The notes under the pieces are model-generated. The model worked only from the letters and a program-made list of their open reading frames with translations. It had not been told where the DNA came from and made no database searches. Shown here piece after piece: positions 4,192 to 11,329 of a stretch of DNA of 64,000 nucleotides. The stretch's first letter is position 1; the number at the start of each line of letters is the position of its first letter. The position numbers and the translations under genes are program-made. Source of the stretch: Trypanosoma brucei (lineage: Eukaryota); assembly GCA_000002445.1 (NCBI GenBank), contig CM000208.1, positions 3,872,001-3,936,000 on the forward strand. The letters run 5' to 3'.

Positions 4192-5253
4192 ATGCTTCAA
4201 CCAGAGTGTCAACCGGGGTTTTGCTTCGATTCGGTTGCGGTGGATGGGAAGACGAACGTTGTAGTTAACGTCTGTGGGCATGAATCAGTCGGTAAGGCAC
4301 TGACAAAAAGCATGGACGTCGCACCCACAAGCTATTTAGATGAATATGGAGTAGATAATCTTATTGTTCCAATATCTGTTAGGCCTCCATTGAAATGCGA
4401 AGAGGGTAGGTGTGATTTTGTTATCGACGTCGTTGTCCATCCGTCACTGACTGAGCGCTGTGTGAAGGGACACCGACTTTTTGAACATTATATAACCAGG
4501 CTAACAACCCTCGCTATTGAATGGATCTTGCAGGAGTGTGGAGTAAGGCTAAATGCACGGGACTGTAAGCTTATTAAAGGGACGAAATACTATAGTTGCA
4601 CAAAACGGGACGTCAAGCAAATGATTTCAGAGTTGATGAGATCAATGGATACACAGTTGAAGAACGAGTCAACAAAGACAGACTCAGAATCGGATTTGCT
4701 AGGGGACAAACTTAAGGTAAACACCAATAGAAAGGATGCGGAGAATAGCCGACCACCCCTTGTTACAGAAATGCCTGCAAGTAGTGGAATTCAGAAAGGT
4801 TTCCTTAGCAAGGCCAGGCTATATGGAGACAAGGGAAGTGGTGAGTGTAACGAATCTCAATCCGATCCACTTCTTCATCTCCCTGAGAACCTTAGAAAGA
4901 AATGTCAAATTGTTGATCTTCGGCAAAGTAGTTGCACGCCACAAGAACCGGGAAAGGCCGGTCTAATCTCCAAATGTGATGAAGTGCTCAAAAATACTCC
5001 TACTGTCCCTACAAAGCCACTCCACGAATGGAAGGTTATTTCTTTGAGTTGCGATGAAACGGCGGTTGTTGTACGACTACATCCACCGCCGGGCGTAACA
5101 TCAATGAAGTCGGTAAACCTGGAGGTAACGCCGGGCACTATAGAAATTGACGAAACTGTTGTTAACCTACCGAAATCCATACGCGTGGGTGAAGTATCGG
5201 CGAAATTTTTGAAATCTTCGAGCAGCTTAATTCTGACGTGTCCGATAGCTTAG
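4192..5253 (+). CDS. PIH1-domain protein (Kintoun/DNAAF2/PIH1D-like) with a C-terminal CS-like beta-sandwich region
   Basis: 353-aa ORF. The N-terminus QPECQPGFCFDS..VVVNVCGHESV matches the PIH1 signature (PGFC.K....NIC.S). The C-terminal part (VVVRLHPP..NLEVTPGTIEIDETVVNLP) resembles a CS/p23-like domain. An AT/pyrimidine-rich tract lies immediately upstream. Confidence 0.6.
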   Translation: MLQPECQPGFCFDSVAVDGKTNVVVNVCGHESVGKALTKSMDVAPTSYLDEYGVDNLIVPISVRPPLKCEEGRCDFVIDVVVHPSLTERCVKGHRLFEHYITRLTTLAIEWILQECGVRLNARDCKLIKGTKYYSCTKRDVKQMISELMRSMDTQLKNESTKTDSESDLLGDKLKVNTNRKDAENSRPPLVTEMPASSGIQKGFLSKARLYGDKGSGECNESQSDPLLHLPENLRKKCQIVDLRQSSCTPQEPGKAGLISKCDEVLKNTPTVPTKPLHEWKVISLSCDETAVVVRLHPPPGVTSMKSVNLEVTPGTIEIDETVVNLPKSIRVGEVSAKFLKSSSSLILTCPIA

Positions 5254-5523: not shown

Positions 5524-6621
5524 ATGGACATACCACAAGAACTGGCTTGTCCTACGGAAGATCGACGTTTATACGTTGTCCGGGGGCAAACATTTGAAGT
5601 TGGCCGTTCTCATAAACTCGTGAAATTTATTGGATCCGGGTCGTACGGGTCTGTGTGCTCGGCTGTTGATGAAGATAGCGGCGAACGTGTCGCTATCAAA
5701 AGAATACAACGCGTATTCTCAGACTTAAAGGAAGGCAAGCGTATATTGAGGGAAATGGATATTCTTACATCGCTACATCACACCAACCTCGTACGCCTAA
5801 GGCAGTTTATTCGCCCAGTACGGAAAGACGATTTTTCTGATATATACATAGTGATGGACCTTTACGACACGGATCTTCACCGGATCATCCGAAGTCGACA
5901 AAGTCTTACAAACGAACATTATCAGTACCTAATGATTCAGGCGTTTCGTGGGCTTTTCTACTTGCACACCGCAAAAGTTATACACCGTGACTTAAAACCA
6001 AGTAATTTATTAGTTAACGCTGATTGTACTCTGGCTATCTGTGACTTCGGGCTTGCTCGTGATGATCAATGTACGCAGACCTCTGCGCTCACCGAATATG
6101 TTGTAACTAGGTGGTATCGACCACCTGAAGTGTTAGGCATGGGATCCCATCGATATACAAACGCAGTGGATGTCTGGAGCCTAGGGCTCATCTTTGCTGA
6201 ATTGATGGTTGGTAAGACGCTTTTGCCGGGCTCTGATTACATTCACCAATTGATAATGATTGTCCATCTCCTAGGGACCCCCGCTTCGGAGGATATGGAA
6301 TTTCTTAGCGAGGAAGCAAAGAACTTTCTTCTTGCACAGCCTTTTCAGGAGGCTCGACCGTTTACAGAACTCTTTCCCGCTGCTACTCCTGAGGCGGCTG
6401 ATCTACTTTCAAAGCTGCTAGTATTCCATCCTGACAAGCGGCTTACGGCAAAGGAGGTGATTGAACATGCGTATTTTGCTAAGTTTAGGAACCCTGCGGC
6501 GGAGACAGGTGCTAAAGAGCCGTATGTTTGGCGACACAATGAGGGACTCACACTTGAGGGCCTTCGTGAGGAAATGTGGCGTATTATTTTGGCACATTCT
6601 CCCGGTCCAAAGGGTGACTAG
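5524..6621 (+). CDS. mitogen-activated protein kinase (TEY activation-loop type)
   Basis: 365 aa with Gly-loop IGSGSYGSV, VAIK, HRDLKPSNLLVN, DFGLAR, activation loop TEYVVTRWYRPPE and a CD-domain-like C-terminus. This is the classic ERK-type MAPK signature. It is possibly T. brucei MAPK2, but the paralogue is not resolved from sequence alone. Confidence 0.85.
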   Translation: MDIPQELACPTEDRRLYVVRGQTFEVGRSHKLVKFIGSGSYGSVCSAVDEDSGERVAIKRIQRVFSDLKEGKRILREMDILTSLHHTNLVRLRQFIRPVRKDDFSDIYIVMDLYDTDLHRIIRSRQSLTNEHYQYLMIQAFRGLFYLHTAKVIHRDLKPSNLLVNADCTLAICDFGLARDDQCTQTSALTEYVVTRWYRPPEVLGMGSHRYTNAVDVWSLGLIFAELMVGKTLLPGSDYIHQLIMIVHLLGTPASEDMEFLSEEAKNFLLAQPFQEARPFTELFPAATPEAADLLSKLLVFHPDKRLTAKEVIEHAYFAKFRNPAAETGAKEPYVWRHNEGLTLEGLREEMWRIILAHSPGPKGD

Positions 6622-6819: not shown

Positions 6820-8685
6820 ATGAAGCATGACTTTCCAAAGCGTCCACGGGAGCCTGCACCCAGCGATTGCTGTGGCAGCGGGTGTACAAGATGTGTATGG
6901 GATGTGTATTTCGACGAAATGATGAAATACGAAGAACGCATGCAAAACGCCGTAATTAAAGACGAGTTTGCAGATGGTGATGTTAAAGGGGGATGTGATA
7001 GTTCATCTGATGATAGTGATGGTGATGGTGTTTCATCGAATTATGTGGGCTCTGTTGTGGTCAAGTATATTGACATTCCCAACGACGAAGGCCGCTGCGT
7101 AACGGCAGCGACCTCGATATCGACCATACTCGGTCGTTTTTCTGATGTTGTTGACGTTCATACAGTCTCGAGCAGCTCCCGTGGCAATTCCGGTGCTCAC
7201 TCCCCCGTCGGGAACCAAGACATACATGTGCTTGATGTAGTTTTGGGTGAAACTGATGGATTCGAAAAGCTAAAATTACCATTGTTACCGTTACCGGGGG
7301 ATGTTGTTGAGATTTTTCGCCCCAATGATTACAGTGTGGGAAATTGTGAACAACCCGGAGAGGTAGAAAAATTATGCGATCGCTTGGGTGTGTCTCCCAA
7401 CCAGTGGTGTGAACTCTATCGGTCTCCGTTTGTGCCAACAGGCCACTTTCCCCCGTGGCTTCCGTTACAACAACCCGTTCAGATCCGTACCCTTTTGGCC
7501 TATTTTGTGGACATCGGGAGTTGCAGCTACATTTTGCGCCCAACGTTTCTCCAGACGCTATTCCGTGTCGCGACGTCCGTTAAGGGTGTTCTCCCAGATT
7601 CTTTGACACCTGAGAGTCGTGATATGCTGGAGTTGCTAAAGGTGTGTGGATCGAGTGAGGTGGCGCCACTGATATACAAGGCCACCGTAAGTGGAAATGC
7701 TACGCCATGTTTTCCACGACTGATTGACGTTTTAAATGTGTTCTCATTCGTAAATTTTCCGCTTGCGCGTTTGCTCGAGGTCAGTGGACCGTTGCGGGCG
7801 AGAAAGTTCAGCGTAGCTAACTACACACTAAGTGAAACCGCTGACAGACAAGGGGGATCGTGCCTGGGCTCTGTGCAACTCTGTTTGCGTGGTGTCGACG
7901 TTGCCAAAACTGAAAGCGCCGTTGAGAAGGAATGCACCAGTGAACCTGCTCACATCTTTGCGGGTCTGCTGCGTGGCGCCGCGTTACGGCGTTGTACGGA
8001 AGGAGGAAATGGTGGGAACCACTTCACTGGGCACGTCTCAAACCCGTTGTGTTACTTTCATTCTCGTCAACATGCGCTTCGTTTGTATGTTGGCACTAAG
8101 CTGTTTGGTATGTCCTCGTTTGCGAAGAACTTGAATAGGGCTATCACCCCTGTTCGTCTGTCCACAGGACTGTCTCCAGTCCCAACGATGTTGCCATGGG
8201 TGATACTTGTGGGTGCGGGTACTGGAATTGCGCCCTTGATGAGTGCAGTGAACGAACTCGTGCGTCGCCGTGCTGATGGTTCGGCCGTTGAGCGTTGCAG
8301 TACTAAATGCTGGGTGGTGTATGGCGCAAGAAACTTCTCGGAACTCGTGTACCATGAGCAGCTACAAGAGGCACTGAGGCTAGGTGCAATCTCCCGGTAC
8401 GAAGTAGCCCTTTCACGATCGACTGCAGGTGAACACCCAAGATACGTCACGGATGTGCTGGAGTCGCATGCTGAGTTTATACGTTCTGAGCTTCTCGAAA
8501 GGAGCGGATGGATGTTTGCTTGTGGACCATTGAGTGCTATGCGGTCGCTGAGGGAACGAATGACCGCAAAAATTTTGCGCGCCGCGGACGACGACGAGAG
8601 TGTATCTGAACAACGCATTCGCTACTTGGAGGGCACAGAGCATCTTGTATTTGATATTTGGGGTTCGGTTGGCCTCTTCAGCTGA
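6820..8685 (+). CDS. oxidoreductase: N-terminal CxxC 'oxidoreductase-like' domain plus C-terminal ferredoxin-NADP-reductase-type FAD/NAD(P)-binding module
   Basis: 621 aa. N-terminus PSDCCGSGCTRCVWDVY matches the Oxidored-like motif. It is followed by an acidic Ser/Asp linker (DSSSDDSDGDG). The C-terminus has VILVGAGTGIAPLMS (NAD-binding GxGxG(I/V)AP) and FACGPLSAM, typical of the FNR/cytochrome-b5-reductase fold. Confidence 0.5.
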   Translation: MKHDFPKRPREPAPSDCCGSGCTRCVWDVYFDEMMKYEERMQNAVIKDEFADGDVKGGCDSSSDDSDGDGVSSNYVGSVVVKYIDIPNDEGRCVTAATSISTILGRFSDVVDVHTVSSSSRGNSGAHSPVGNQDIHVLDVVLGETDGFEKLKLPLLPLPGDVVEIFRPNDYSVGNCEQPGEVEKLCDRLGVSPNQWCELYRSPFVPTGHFPPWLPLQQPVQIRTLLAYFVDIGSCSYILRPTFLQTLFRVATSVKGVLPDSLTPESRDMLELLKVCGSSEVAPLIYKATVSGNATPCFPRLIDVLNVFSFVNFPLARLLEVSGPLRARKFSVANYTLSETADRQGGSCLGSVQLCLRGVDVAKTESAVEKECTSEPAHIFAGLLRGAALRRCTEGGNGGNHFTGHVSNPLCYFHSRQHALRLYVGTKLFGMSSFAKNLNRAITPVRLSTGLSPVPTMLPWVILVGAGTGIAPLMSAVNELVRRRADGSAVERCSTKCWVVYGARNFSELVYHEQLQEALRLGAISRYEVALSRSTAGEHPRYVTDVLESHAEFIRSELLERSGWMFACGPLSAMRSLRERMTAKILRAADDDESVSEQRIRYLEGTEHLVFDIWGSVGLFS

Positions 8686-8941
8686 GCGGTGCGTATTTTT
8701 TTCCCCCAGAAAGGTAAGCAATCATAGCTCTATTTGTTTGTTGCATTGTTTATTTGTTTGTTTTCCCTTCACCACAACTCATGTTGTTTCGTCATGGTCG
8801 TCCCCACTCGTGTGTTTTGTGTTCGTTTGTGTTACTTTGCCTACGCGCAGTACATAAGGAAGGTCAGTAAGCATAATAATACAGTGACAAGCGTCAAGGT
8901 TTTGGGTGGGGTGATAGGGGAGTCTGTGTGGCTCTCATAGA

Positions 8942-9481
8942 ATGTCAGATGGACTTCCGTGGCCCTCATCGACGGTGAGTGCTCTCCAAAGAATCCCTTT
9001 TCGGGAGCGCCTGAAGAACTTTTACTTCTTGATTTTTAGCGCTAAAACGAACCGATGTATCCTTGCCACATCTATTGTGCTGTTGCTAATCAGCGTGGTG
9101 AGGAGTAGCTGCGTAACGACCCTTTGGTACCATACAGCTGAAGCAATCGTAACGTTGCTTTTCGTCTGCGAAGTCACTATTCGTCTCATGGTGATGCGAG
9201 GTAACTTTTGGGATTCTTCGTACAATGTAGCGGAGGCGCTGTCTTGTGTGGTTTGTATTACTATTTTTTTCGTTCTCCACTACACACGTCAGATGAGCTC
9301 TTCAGTGGAACATCAGTTTCTTATCGCACTGCGCTATTTGGGCCAGGTGCTGCGATTGGCGGGGTTAGTTGCGGTGGACACTGTACTCTTGGGAAGTGGT
9401 GAGGCTACCCTTCATCTTTCTTTTGTCGGCACCCGGCCATGTGTGGTCAGTGGGAGAGAAAACCTGTGTGATGTACTGTGA
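8942..9481 (+). CDS. small membrane protein resembling an isolated voltage-sensor domain (S1-S4 of the ion_trans family)
   Basis: 179-aa ORF with four predicted TM segments. The S2-like segment LLFVCEVTIRLMVMRGNFWDSSYNVAE reproduces the ion_trans S2-S3 pattern (acidic residue in S2, basic residue, FW.S.WN..D/E). The S4-like segment LIALRYLGQVLRLAGLV has spaced arginines. No pore-domain ORF follows in any frame before the next gene. Confidence 0.35.
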   Translation: MSDGLPWPSSTVSALQRIPFRERLKNFYFLIFSAKTNRCILATSIVLLLISVVRSSCVTTLWYHTAEAIVTLLFVCEVTIRLMVMRGNFWDSSYNVAEALSCVVCITIFFVLHYTRQMSSSVEHQFLIALRYLGQVLRLAGLVAVDTVLLGSGEATLHLSFVGTRPCVVSGRENLCDVL

Positions 9482-10573
9482 AAATTTTTTATTTTCCTCC
9501 GTGGGCTGTCTGTGCTCTCCAGCGATTGGCACCTGGTGCGACGCGGGTGGTCACTCTTTTCTTTCCGTCTCTCTTTTACTTCTTGCTGAGTAGTGAGCCG
9601 GGGGGTGGGCCGCAACAGATATGCGGCGGCATCCAACACGCGTCTCAGGGAACCTCATGCCATGTGCACATGTGGACACATAAACACGTAAGTGTCAATT
9701 AGTGCCCATTTTGGAAGTGCGCAGTCACCACGTCTCGCGTACGCTTTTTTCTTTTTTTTTTACCTTCCTTTTGTACATACCCTCCTTTTTGACTCCTATG
9801 TCTTTGTCATTTTTTATGCAGATAGTAGGCAGGCTGGAGAAACGCAGGTGTCCGCATACCTGATTGGACGTTAGCGGGGCTTTGATCACCTTCTGACTAA
9901 TGTCCGAGGACACGTTTTTTCGCCGTGCTGCCAATTGGATGTACGGTGACTCTTCGTACCTACAGAGGACGCCGCCACCGGAGCTTGGTGATAGGCACAT
10001 CAACGAACTCTTGAGTCGCCATCCTTTTCACCCGTTTGACCCGGAGATGAGCTCCGAGCACCCTTGTAGCGAAAATAACTCGTTATTCTACTCGTGTATG
10101 ACAAGTGACGAGGTCGAGGGCTACGAACTGCACATGAAGCACGTCACCTGCTATTTTCCGTATAAAGTAAATCTGATGAAATGCCTCTCGAGAGAGCGCC
10201 GCCTGGCACGCGCGGGGGCGTCTTCGGATATAGACAAACAGAAATGACTACTCACAATGAACATTAGGCCCAGCCACACCCCCTTCCGGCTGCCGGTTAA
10301 GCACGGGGCTGAGTTTTCCATTGGGACGCCAGTATTTATTTATTATCACAATTATTTTTACCGCGCACGATCCTTAGGTTTGGTAGACATACGTGGAACA
10401 CATACAAGCACATGGATGTATATTCGTCTGTGCGCATAGTCAAACCGATAAGCTCATGTTTTCTGCAAACTTACACAGGACTCTCCCCCGACCCCCTTAA
10501 ATACAGAGTCGTCACCTACGTGCTCGTCTCCCACTCTTGCCATCTATAGTGTTACAAAGCTCCCACACACAAG

Positions 10574-11329
10574 ATGCAGACCTTACTGAGACCCCGCCCC
10601 GGAGAGCCCACTCTCTTTGGCCCACCCACCAATCAGTGCACTCAGCTATGGGGTGTCTGGGAAATGTGGTGCGTGTTGCCTGATGGCCACGAAGCAGCAA
10701 CTGCTACACCAAATGTGCGTGGCAGCGGCGCGAAGAAGGGTGGTATGTCCAAGACGAAAGTGAAGAAGGCGACATGGCTTGACCAGGTGCGAAGCATCGG
10801 TCTATTCGACAGTGCTGAAGGGTTCTGGGGGATTATTACATGTACACTCAATCCTTCGCAGCTACCGCCCGGATTTAACTACTACCTCTTCCGGCGGAAT
10901 ATCGCCCCTATGTGGGAGCACGAAGCCAACCGCAGGGGTGGGCGCTGGGTAATGCGTTTCCGCGTCTCTCAACACGATGACAGCCCCGCTACCGCTCTCG
11001 ACGGCGCTGTGGCTGCCGCAGCTGAGGGTCAACTCCCAGTGGATCGAGCATGGGAGGCGCTTTGTGTTGCAATGATTGGTGAGCAGCTCCCAGGCGATGA
11101 AACAGAGATTTGTGGAGCAGTGGTGCGGCGGGCAGAGCGTCGGCGAGACTGGAAGTTAAGCCTCTGGACCCGAACCGCCGCGGACCGCTGCACGCAGGAG
11201 CGCATCGGCTTTTTTGTGAAGGACCTGCTTCATTTGGAAGATGGTTCACTACAGTATTTCTCGCACCGCGAACTAATGCAAGCGAGTGAGAAGGGGAACT
11301 GGGATGTCCCACCCTTGTATCAATTGTGA
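10574..11329 (+). CDS. EIF4E2: cap-binding translation initiation factor eIF4E family member (likely EIF4E2)
   Basis: 251 aa. The eIF4E core FWGII..LNPSQLPPGFNYYLFRRNIAPMWEHEANRRGGRWVMRF (cap-stacking Trp, PMWED-like and GGRW motifs) is present. Its size of about 28 kDa and its neighbourhood with IMPDH and GRESAG4 fit what I recall for T. brucei EIF4E2 on chromosome 10. The symbol is recollection, not proof. Confidence 0.75.
   Translation: MQTLLRPRPGEPTLFGPPTNQCTQLWGVWEMWCVLPDGHEAATATPNVRGSGAKKGGMSKTKVKKATWLDQVRSIGLFDSAEGFWGIITCTLNPSQLPPGFNYYLFRRNIAPMWEHEANRRGGRWVMRFRVSQHDDSPATALDGAVAAAAEGQLPVDRAWEALCVAMIGEQLPGDETEICGAVVRRAERRRDWKLSLWTRTAADRCTQERIGFFVKDLLHLEDGSLQYFSHRELMQASEKGNWDVPPLYQL

Follow-up and report, generated by a model that had tools for sequence, protein, structure and literature searches.

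The open reading frame (ORF) at positions 8942–9481 on the forward strand of the Trypanosoma brucei DNA analyzed here (contig CM000208.1, a stretch of 64,000 nucleotides, hereafter the window) is a real, expressed, and conserved gene, Tb927.10.16050. Its whole product of 179 amino acids (aa) was shown to comprise one voltage-sensing domain (VSD), made up of a pre-S1 helix (S0) and the transmembrane (TM) helices S1–S4, and a tail of 33 aa, and to contain neither a pore, nor an enzyme domain, nor a coiled coil. Family profiles identify the protein as a true S1–S4 voltage-sensor homologue with an atypical sensor helix. The family to which it belongs is marked, in its aligned sequences, by R131-x3-Q135-x2-R138 in S4, by a near-invariant C105, and by Ser/Thr at the position of the Hv1 selectivity-filter Asp. 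This pore-less VSD family with an S4 of the R1-Gln-R3 type is apparently uncharacterized so far: no description of it was found in the literature searched (a limited collection on VSD-only proteins, trypanosome channels, and Hv1/TMEM266), and nothing comparable appears in a 2022 review of protozoan ion channels. The initial annotation of the ORF, made from the DNA alone, had left the choice between a VSD-only protein and a decayed fragment of a cation-channel gene. The former holds, as the protein is an S1–S4 homologue and a pore is found neither within it, nor downstream, nor in any of 127 relatives.

Identity, expression, and conservation of the gene

In the supplementary tables of Jensen et al. 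(2014; PMC4210626), Tb927.10.16050 is located at chr10:3952420-3952959 (540 nt), which agrees with the ORF in length and position, and is annotated as "hypothetical protein, conserved." Because one and the same offset between the window and chromosome 10 of strain TREU927 (+3,943,478) fits all four genes Tb927.10.16040, 16050, 16060, and 16070, the ORF was equated with Tb927.10.16050. Between 4192 and 11329, the genes are exactly colinear, in length and in spacing, with those of chromosome 10 of T. brucei TREU927, which places the window close to that chromosome's right end; by position and gene order, 4192–5253 corresponds to PIH1D2 (16020) and 5524–6621 to MAPK2 (16030).

In kinetoplastids, splice signals typically consist of a pyrimidine-rich tract just 5′ of the spliced-leader (SL) site, and such a tract precedes an AG acceptor upstream of the ORF (Table 1). 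The 5′ untranslated region (UTR) of Tb927.10.16050 starts at chr10:3952329, i.e., at 8851 of the window (Jensen et al, 2014, suppl. 6; PMC4210626), and 137 SL reads, which is 96.5% of those assigned to the gene, mark precisely this position (PMC4210626). Messenger RNA counts ranged from 200 to 490, with just 0.2% multi-aligner reads, and normalized ribosome-footprint counts from 35 to 147 (PMC4210626). Ribosome profiling had been named in the initial annotation as a check on the ORF, and footprints were indeed present in all nine libraries, which cover procyclic, slender bloodstream, and cultured bloodstream forms. Tb927.10.16050 has no entry in the supplements examined of TrypTag, of a kinetoplastid structure-annotation paper, and of Vasquez et al. 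(2014).

The ORF is significant because of its conservation, synteny, ratio of nonsynonymous to synonymous substitution (dN/dS), and expression, not because of its length; these same four properties led to rejection of a chance ORF. Approximately one stop-free run of at least 179 codons is expected by chance per 64-kb window (estimated as (61/64)^179 × ∼6,000 ORFs). An antisense ORF of 183 aa with an ATG start (8067–8618, reverse strand) lies opposite the adjoining oxidoreductase gene and is most likely such a chance ORF; length alone is therefore no evidence of a gene in the window.

The protein is 100% identical to TEOVI_000031600 of T. equiperdum, and orthologues of 180–183 aa with 48–55% identity were found in T. 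cruzi, T. rangeli, T. conorhini, and one SRA assembly; that of T. theileri (180 aa) also occupies the syntenic position. In T. cruzi, T. theileri, T. rangeli, and T. conorhini, the gene order is protein kinase, oxidoreductase, VSD gene, a gene for 109–124 aa, and IF4E, with PIH1 upstream of the kinase wherever the locus extends far enough. Altogether, a VSD gene for 179–183 aa with the same neighbors is present in six Trypanosoma species, which bears out the expectation of orthologues of equal length. One further protein (P0007, 163 aa) has a single mismatch to the T. cruzi orthologue within residues 1–116 and then diverges fully; the probable explanation is a frameshifted allele or else an assembly error in one of the T. 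cruzi datasets. The dN/dS of the VSD gene (Nei–Gojobori, unsaturated pairs) was 0.13–0.18 overall, 0.08–0.16 in the TM core, and 0.25–0.72 in the termini.

The initial annotation had also raised the possibility that syntenic loci carry a full-length channel, which is not the case: T. cruzi has the 180-aa gene, and the syntenic interval of Leishmania mexicana, like that of Leptomonas pyrrhocoris, contained no VSD in any of the six frames checked. In these two species (loci L003, 10756–17101, and L004, 10753–16732), the VSD gene is missing between the oxidoreductase gene and a gene for 117–118 aa, and an extra protein-kinase gene (611–621 aa) is situated between the latter and IF4E. In L. pyrrhocoris, a 169-aa ACT-domain gene occupies the slot of the Trypanosoma VSD gene. 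Leishmania proteins were absent from the matches of every family search, which did not include a scan of whole Leishmania genomes.

These data bear directly on the proposal that the ORF is a pseudogene or other decayed relic of a six-TM cation channel whose S5–S6 were lost in this strain. A priori, the idea is reasonable, since S1–S4 usually precedes a pore, and the match of the single sequence to Pfam is weak (E 0.2). However, genes for 179–183 aa with the same neighbors in six Trypanosoma species (those of T. cruzi, T. rangeli, T. conorhini, and T. theileri being syntenic and encoding 180 aa), purifying selection that is strongest in the TM core, an SL site of its own, and ribosome footprints all speak against decay; moreover, a pore is lacking in all 127 relatives, and no channel-like ORF follows in any frame. 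Because the gene is real, conserved, selected, trans-spliced, and ribosome-footprinted, a decayed fragment is, for practical purposes, excluded.

Fold, family, and the variant S4 helix

An AlphaFold (AF2) model built with 39 sequences reached a mean predicted local distance difference test score (pLDDT) of 81, with more than 90 in the TM core, whereas an earlier model from five sequences was poor (pLDDT 62). The four-helix S1–S4 fold of the voltage-sensor superfamily is evident: the helices of the model (S0 at 20–31, S1 at 34–53, S2 at 61–84, S3 at 93–115, and S4 at 121–156) coincide with the hydropathy peaks, so that the four hydrophobic segments originally noted in the 179-aa ORF are all present and are additionally preceded by the amphipathic S0. 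When the model was compared with the PDB by Foldseek, all top 50 matches were VSDs (TMt 0.69 for Ci-VSP).

On its own, the sequence of Tb927.10.16050 is only suggestive. Its scores were weak (E 0.2 for Ion_trans, 0.25 for Hv1, and 0.28 for CatSper3; 0.2–0.5 over Pfam, NCBIfam, and PDB), and its Pfam matches, Ion_trans, Cytochrom_B558a, and DUF2070, were all below threshold (E 0.2 to 1.6). An exhaustive profile search of 1.84 billion representatives (E up to 1e-3) returned 122 relatives; the family alignment comprises 127 sequences and the profile 118. Only once such family profiles were used did the homology to VSDs reach significance: the orthologues match Pfam Ion_trans (PF00520) down to E 7.2e-7, 82 of the 118 family members match it (best E 1.5e-10), and the family profile found Cav (3.5e-25), Nav (∼1e-15), Hv1 (2e-13 and 8e-12), TPTE2 (2e-12), and Ci-VSP (9e-12) in the PDB. 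The search with hidden Markov models that had been suggested as a check thus progressed from E 0.2 for the single sequence over 7.2e-7 for the orthologues to 3.5e-25 for the family profile. That the protein is instead a generic four-helix membrane protein, whose likeness to a VSD is convergent or due to chance, is hardly credible. The profile matched VSD-containing proteins only, more than two-thirds of the family match Ion_trans, and the functional residues sit at exact VSD spacing, both in S2 (E-7-F-3-E-4-R) and in S3 (N-x-x-D/E).

The family is probably nearest to the Hv1/VSP group, where VSP denotes the voltage-sensing phosphatases, because the pore-less proteins score best per domain and align through S4. 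The per-domain score of the profile was higher for the Hv1 chains than for every Cav or Nav repeat, and human Hv1, with its sequence entered by hand, scored 61 bits over S0–S4. The alignment with the profile reaches through S4 in Hv1 and VSPs but stops after S3 in Cav and Nav.

The charge-transfer center of the predicted sensor (E67-7-F74-3-E77-4-R81 in S2 together with N95-x-x-E98 in S3) has canonical spacing. Across the 127-sequence alignment, position 67 is acidic in 97%, position 74 is F/L/M in 96%, position 77 is always acidic, and R81 is Arg in 82%; position 98 is invariably D/E, and C105 is Cys in 94%. F74, E77, R81, and E98 align with F161, D164, R168, and D186 of Ci-VSP, and F74, E77, and E98 with F150, E153, and D174 of Hv1. 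The string in S2–S3 described in the initial annotation, including an acid in S2, was recovered as F89-W90-x-S92-x-x-N95-x-x-E98, and E67 is present in addition to E77. In the linker, F89 is Phe in 69% (F/Y in 90%), W90 is Trp in 58% (W/F in 78%), S92 is Ser in 80%, and N95 is conserved in 91%; F89-W90-D91-S92, together with N95, fits the Ion_trans consensus of Cav and Nav alignments. Ahead of the bundle, R21, E22, and L24 of S0 are invariant in the five Trypanosoma-group sequences of alignment A1. S1 is devoid of acidic residues, and D/E anywhere in the S1 core occurs in just one of 127 members; position 44 is S/T in 39 of 40 members of a clade introduced below (the EH clade) and S/T/A across the family.

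The sensor helix itself departs from the classical pattern. Spaced arginines had been noted in an S4-like helix (ALRYLGQVLRL), and this string is present, but R131 and R138 are seven residues apart rather than three and have Gln135 between them. Instead of at least three basic residues at every third position, there are only R131 and R138, which therefore makes this a variant S4. The arrangement is a property of the family, as R131 (97%), Q135 (91%), and R138 (98%) are highly conserved, R-x3-Q-x2-R is found in 110 of 127 members, and R..R..R is found in only 2. By profile alignment, Q135 corresponds to R2 and R138 to R3 of both Hv1 and Ci-VSP, whereas R131 falls at R1 with an offset of one residue. 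With Gln at a position that normally bears a charge, the family may operate in another way than the pore-less sensors known so far. The periodicity of conservation in all four TM helices (95–105 degrees per residue; 95–100 in S4) indicates one conserved stripe per helix, and each stripe is formed by the known core-lining residues.

Members of the family are 140–460 aa long (nearly all of the 122 relatives 140–350 aa). A TM-like hydrophobic window beyond S4 was found in 0 of 127 members, i.e., the S5, pore loop, and S6 of a six-TM channel never follow, and none of the 122 relatives is fused to another domain. Ser, Asp, and Gly abound in the family tails, whose median length is 48 aa. In Tb927.10.16050, the 23 residues after 156 are rich in Gly, Ser, and Pro, and the pLDDT falls below 50 at residues 158–164 and 169–179. 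The terminal DVL is nevertheless invariant in alignment A1, and residues 172–179 (9455–9478) keep the pattern R-x-x-[YFL]-[RC]-D-[VI]-L across Trypanosoma although the remaining tail drifts. C-termini of the family are usually hydrophobic (V/L in 27 of 40 EH-clade members), and in fungal-looking members a final F, L, or I often comes after a run of acidic residues. Judged by these patterns, the conserved C-terminus may be a trafficking signal or a signal for export from the endoplasmic reticulum.

The 40 members of the EH clade, among them the Trypanosoma proteins, share an invariant E123-H124, and most have Cys102 (39 of 40) and H64 (25 of 40). Named members from Euglenozoa and Heterolobosea are Trypanosoma species, the diplonemids Diplonema papillatum and Lacrimia lanifica, and one heterolobosean; those from fungi are the chytrids Rhizophlyctis, Polyrhizophydium, and Globomyces, as well as Neoconidiobolus (Zoopagomycota) and Tilletia (Basidiomycota). 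Another entry, filed under Colponema, stems, as we guess, from kinetoplastid prey in the culture, and most of the remaining members come from environmental eukaryote assemblies. All named entries are labeled either "hypothetical protein" or, automatically, "Ion transport domain-containing protein." One protein, P0071 (313 aa), carries two tandem VSD repeats in a single polypeptide, the first with a degenerate S4, a sequence arrangement which hints that the family may work as dimers.

Table 1. Position of Tb927.10.16050, its parts, and the adjacent conserved ORF in the window (residue numbers refer to the protein).
Feature	Window position	Strand	Remarks
Pyrimidine-rich tract 5′ of the trans-splice acceptor	8731..8848	+	118 nt; C+T 0.70, compared with 0.50 in the whole window
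AG splice acceptor	8849..8850	+	GCGCAG|TACAT; mRNA body from 8851
5′ UTR of Tb927.10.16050	8851..8941	+	91 nt; length according to Jensen et al. (2014), suppl. 6
Coding sequence of Tb927.10.16050	8942..9481	+	ATG-start ORF, 179 aa and stop; pore-less S1–S4 voltage-sensor protein
S0, amphipathic pre-S1 helix, aa 20–31 (FRERLKNFYFLI)	8999..9034	+	AF2 helix; aligns with pre-S1 of human Hv1
S1, aa 34–53	9041..9100	+	AF2 helix; no acidic residue; S44 aligns with Hv1 D112, S51 with Hv1 E119
S2, aa 61–84	9122..9193	+	H64; E67, outer acid; F74, hydrophobic gasket; E77, inner acid; R81
S2–S3 linker, cytosolic, conserved part F89-W90-D91-S92	9206..9217	+	Runs on into N95 of S3
S3, aa 93–115	9218..9286	+	N95; E98, inner acid; C102; C105
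S4, aa 121–146	9302..9379	+	E123-H124 at outer end; R131 (9332–9334), Q135 (9344–9346), R138 (9353–9355)
C-terminal tail, cytosolic, aa 147–179 (33 aa)	9380..9478	+	Poorly conserved but for terminal D-V-L
Conserved ORF Tb927.10.16060	9900..10247	+	115 aa; annotated "hypothetical protein, conserved"

Relation to known pore-less sensors and possible modes of action

Few voltage sensors are known to work without a pore, namely Hv1, the VSPs, TMEM266, and the sensor of SLC9C1. The coiled coil of Hv channels mediates dimerization and is absent in a few protist Hv. With Hv1 (HVCN1), the best-scoring single-domain relative of the family profile, Tb927.10.16050 shares the pore-less build of S0 and S1–S4 with short loops and a similar size, the Phe gasket and Glu of S2, and the acid of S3; H64 is predicted to occupy the exact position of H140, part of the Zn2+ site at the top of S2, and E123-H124-Q-F resembles E192-H193-Q-F of Hv1. 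The protein might thus be imagined as a divergent Hv1-type proton channel, which would conduct protons selectively through the VSD and be gated by depolarization and the pH gradient, and besides these likenesses the profile scores given above speak for it. However, Hv channels are recognized by an acidic selectivity filter in S1 and by RxWRxxR/K in S4 (PMC10377628). Here, the filter position is Ser/Thr (S44 at the place of D112), RxWRxx[RK] was found in 0 of 127 members, and position 134, which aligns with W207, is A/V/I/G/S/T. Because the S1 acid and the S4 motif are both absent, the protein is not an Hv channel, and membership of Hv1 was ruled out on these grounds. Furthermore, R2 pairs with the filter Asp in activated Hv1 (PMC10377628), whereas R2 is Gln in the present family; no C-terminal coiled coil was indicated by the AF2 model or the family tails, a result obtained without a dedicated coiled-coil predictor; and trypanosomatids or kinetoplastids are not mentioned in the Hv survey. 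The family also differs from Hv1 in having E67, the Kv-type outer acid of S2 that Hv1 lacks, and the conserved Cys105. Taken together, the aligned residues make Hv1-type conduction very improbable.

TMEM266 (HVRP1, C15orf27) is likewise a pore-less VSD; it senses voltage and carries no current (PMC6392501, PMC13095418), and its outer face binds Zn2+ via a His at the top of S2 (PMC6392501). It resembles Tb927.10.16050 in having a non-acidic residue at the position of Hv1 D112 and, being a sensor with no obvious effector, may be analogous to it in function. By its published description, on which this comparison depends, TMEM266 is characterized by an S4 with three in-register Arg, by a coiled-coil extension of that helix, and by ∼250 aa of disordered tail (PMC6392501); Tb927.10.16050 has two Arg separated by Gln, a tail of 33 aa, and no coiled coil. 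TMEM266 is described as highly conserved in vertebrates (PMC13095418), whereas the family of Tb927.10.16050 is found in protists and fungi. "Hv1/TMEM266-like," as the ORF had been called, does therefore not stand as a statement of membership, since the S1 acid, RxWRxxR/K, three in-register Arg, and the coiled coil are all absent. VSPs (Ci-VSP, TPTE/TPTE2) agree with the family in that the profile aligns through S4 and S1 is without an acidic filter residue, but they possess four in-register Arg in S4 and a PTEN-like phosphatase after it. Tb927.10.16050 has neither, and its R2 is Gln; membership of the VSPs was rejected, as only 33 residues follow S4 and no phosphatase is among the Pfam matches.

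Function probably resides in the four-helix bundle itself, because the aligned core-lining residues are conserved, the termini are short and relaxed, and no domain fusion occurs. An analogy for what such a bundle might do is provided by omega-current mutants of Nav, Cav, and Kv channels, in which the VSD is otherwise intact but a neutral residue replaces one S4 Arg, so that the two water crevices become joined and cations leak through the sensor. In the disease mutation R222Q of Nav1.5, located in the domain I VSD, exchanging Arg for Gln at the constriction opens a solvated cation path (PMC4306709). These are pathological point mutations in pore-bearing channels, whereas Gln is 91% conserved in the present, pore-less family.

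We tentatively favor, while holding it to be somewhat short of an even chance, that the protein is a self-contained sensor which passes a small voltage-dependent gating-pore conductance. In the outer crevice, R131 would be paired with E67, the outer acid, and with E123/H124; the partners of R138 in the inner crevice would be the two inner acids, E77 and E98; and the neutral Gln135 would come to lie at or near the F74 constriction. With Gln instead of Arg at that point, the outer and inner water crevices could connect, and a small voltage-dependent current of cations or protons could result, i.e., a physiological "gating-pore" (omega) conductance, as in Nav1.5 R222Q. In the euglenozoan clade, H64, C102, C105, E123, and H124 would line the outer crevice, a cluster that points to control by H+ or by Zn2+-like metals from the external or luminal side. 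The view that the family as a whole constitutes a third class of pore-less VSD proteins after Hv1 and TMEM266, old and widespread, in which the R2 Gln makes for a physiological omega channel and the euglenozoan His/Cys/Glu cluster serves tuning by H+ or Zn2+-like metals, is one that we put forward with considerable doubt.

Several points weigh against the gating-pore proposal. Its conduction step is purely inferred, and the placement of Q135 at the constriction depends on register and helical periodicity. The gasket (F/L/M74, V78, L47/L48) is conserved and both flanking Arg are kept, and because of this the bundle may stay sealed in all states. As TMEM266 demonstrates, a pore-less VSD need not conduct in order to function as a voltage sensor (PMC6392501). 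Conservation also extends to the S0 helix and the S2–S3 linker on the cytosolic side, which could provide a surface for binding a partner. Finally, Leishmaniinae manage without the VSD gene, at least in the syntenic position.

Nearly as likely as a gating-pore leak, and hence a serious if still doubtful contender, is a non-conducting sensor of voltage (or of pH or metal), in which a shift of the bundle would be relayed to a pore-only channel, a transporter, a pump, or a cytosolic partner. The relay would run via S0, the S2–S3 linker, and the basic stretch after S4, resembling what is presumed for TMEM266. The precedent of TMEM266 favors this, as does the conservation of the gasket with its two flanking Arg and, on the cytosolic side, of the S0 helix, the FWxS linker, and R/K at position 144. 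Also in its favor are functional co-assembly of VSP voltage sensors with Kir2.1, which a 2026 preprint reports in its abstract, and the presence in T. brucei of a Kir-like channel, TbIRK. On the other hand, because conservation is limited to one stripe of known core-lining residues per helix, no conserved lipid-facing interface is evident; the 33-aa tail evolves fast, and not one of the 122 relatives is fused to another domain. A non-conducting sensor would, moreover, leave unexplained why R2 is strictly Gln rather than any neutral residue.

Neighboring genes and significance

Upstream of the VSD gene lies Tb927.10.16040 (6820–8685, forward strand), which encodes a 621-aa oxidoreductase with Oxidored-like and NAD_binding_1 domains. 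It is a single gene in T. brucei, T. conorhini, and T. theileri and was called as two genes in T. cruzi and T. rangeli assemblies (368 aa plus 230, 174, or 191 aa; loci L001, 3888–5766, and L006, 910–2773), which reflects either a frameshift or an annotation split. Downstream, the ORFs between 9369 and 10436 match no Pfam family, and 10574–11329 encodes IF4E (Pfam, E 9.5e-38). The initial annotation had stated that nothing pore-like follows before the eIF4E gene at 10574; this is correct as to the pore, but the interval is not empty, as it holds the conserved gene Tb927.10.16060. The latter has no Pfam match, its orthologues (109–124 aa) occupy the same position in other trypanosomatids, and its mRNA is marked as more abundant in the procyclic stage (Jensen et al, 2014; PMC4210626). 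A C-x9-C and C-x10-C pair in the protein resembles the twin-CX9C/CHCH motif, from which it may possibly be a protein of the mitochondrial intermembrane space.

The pore-less sensors Hv1, VSPs, TMEM266, and SLC9C1 each changed views on what a voltage sensor can do. A further stand-alone family that extends across eukaryotic supergroups and combines the full counter-charge framework with Gln at R2 would be a natural model for gating-pore conduction or for voltage sensing with minimal charge, and the small size of the protein suits tests by clear point mutants such as Q135R, R131Q, R138Q, C105S, and H64A/H124A. The absence of the gene from the syntenic locus of Leishmaniinae offers a comparative handle. 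For the biology of trypanosomes, Tb927.10.16050 adds an expressed, unstudied component of membrane excitability to a parasite with very few annotated channels.

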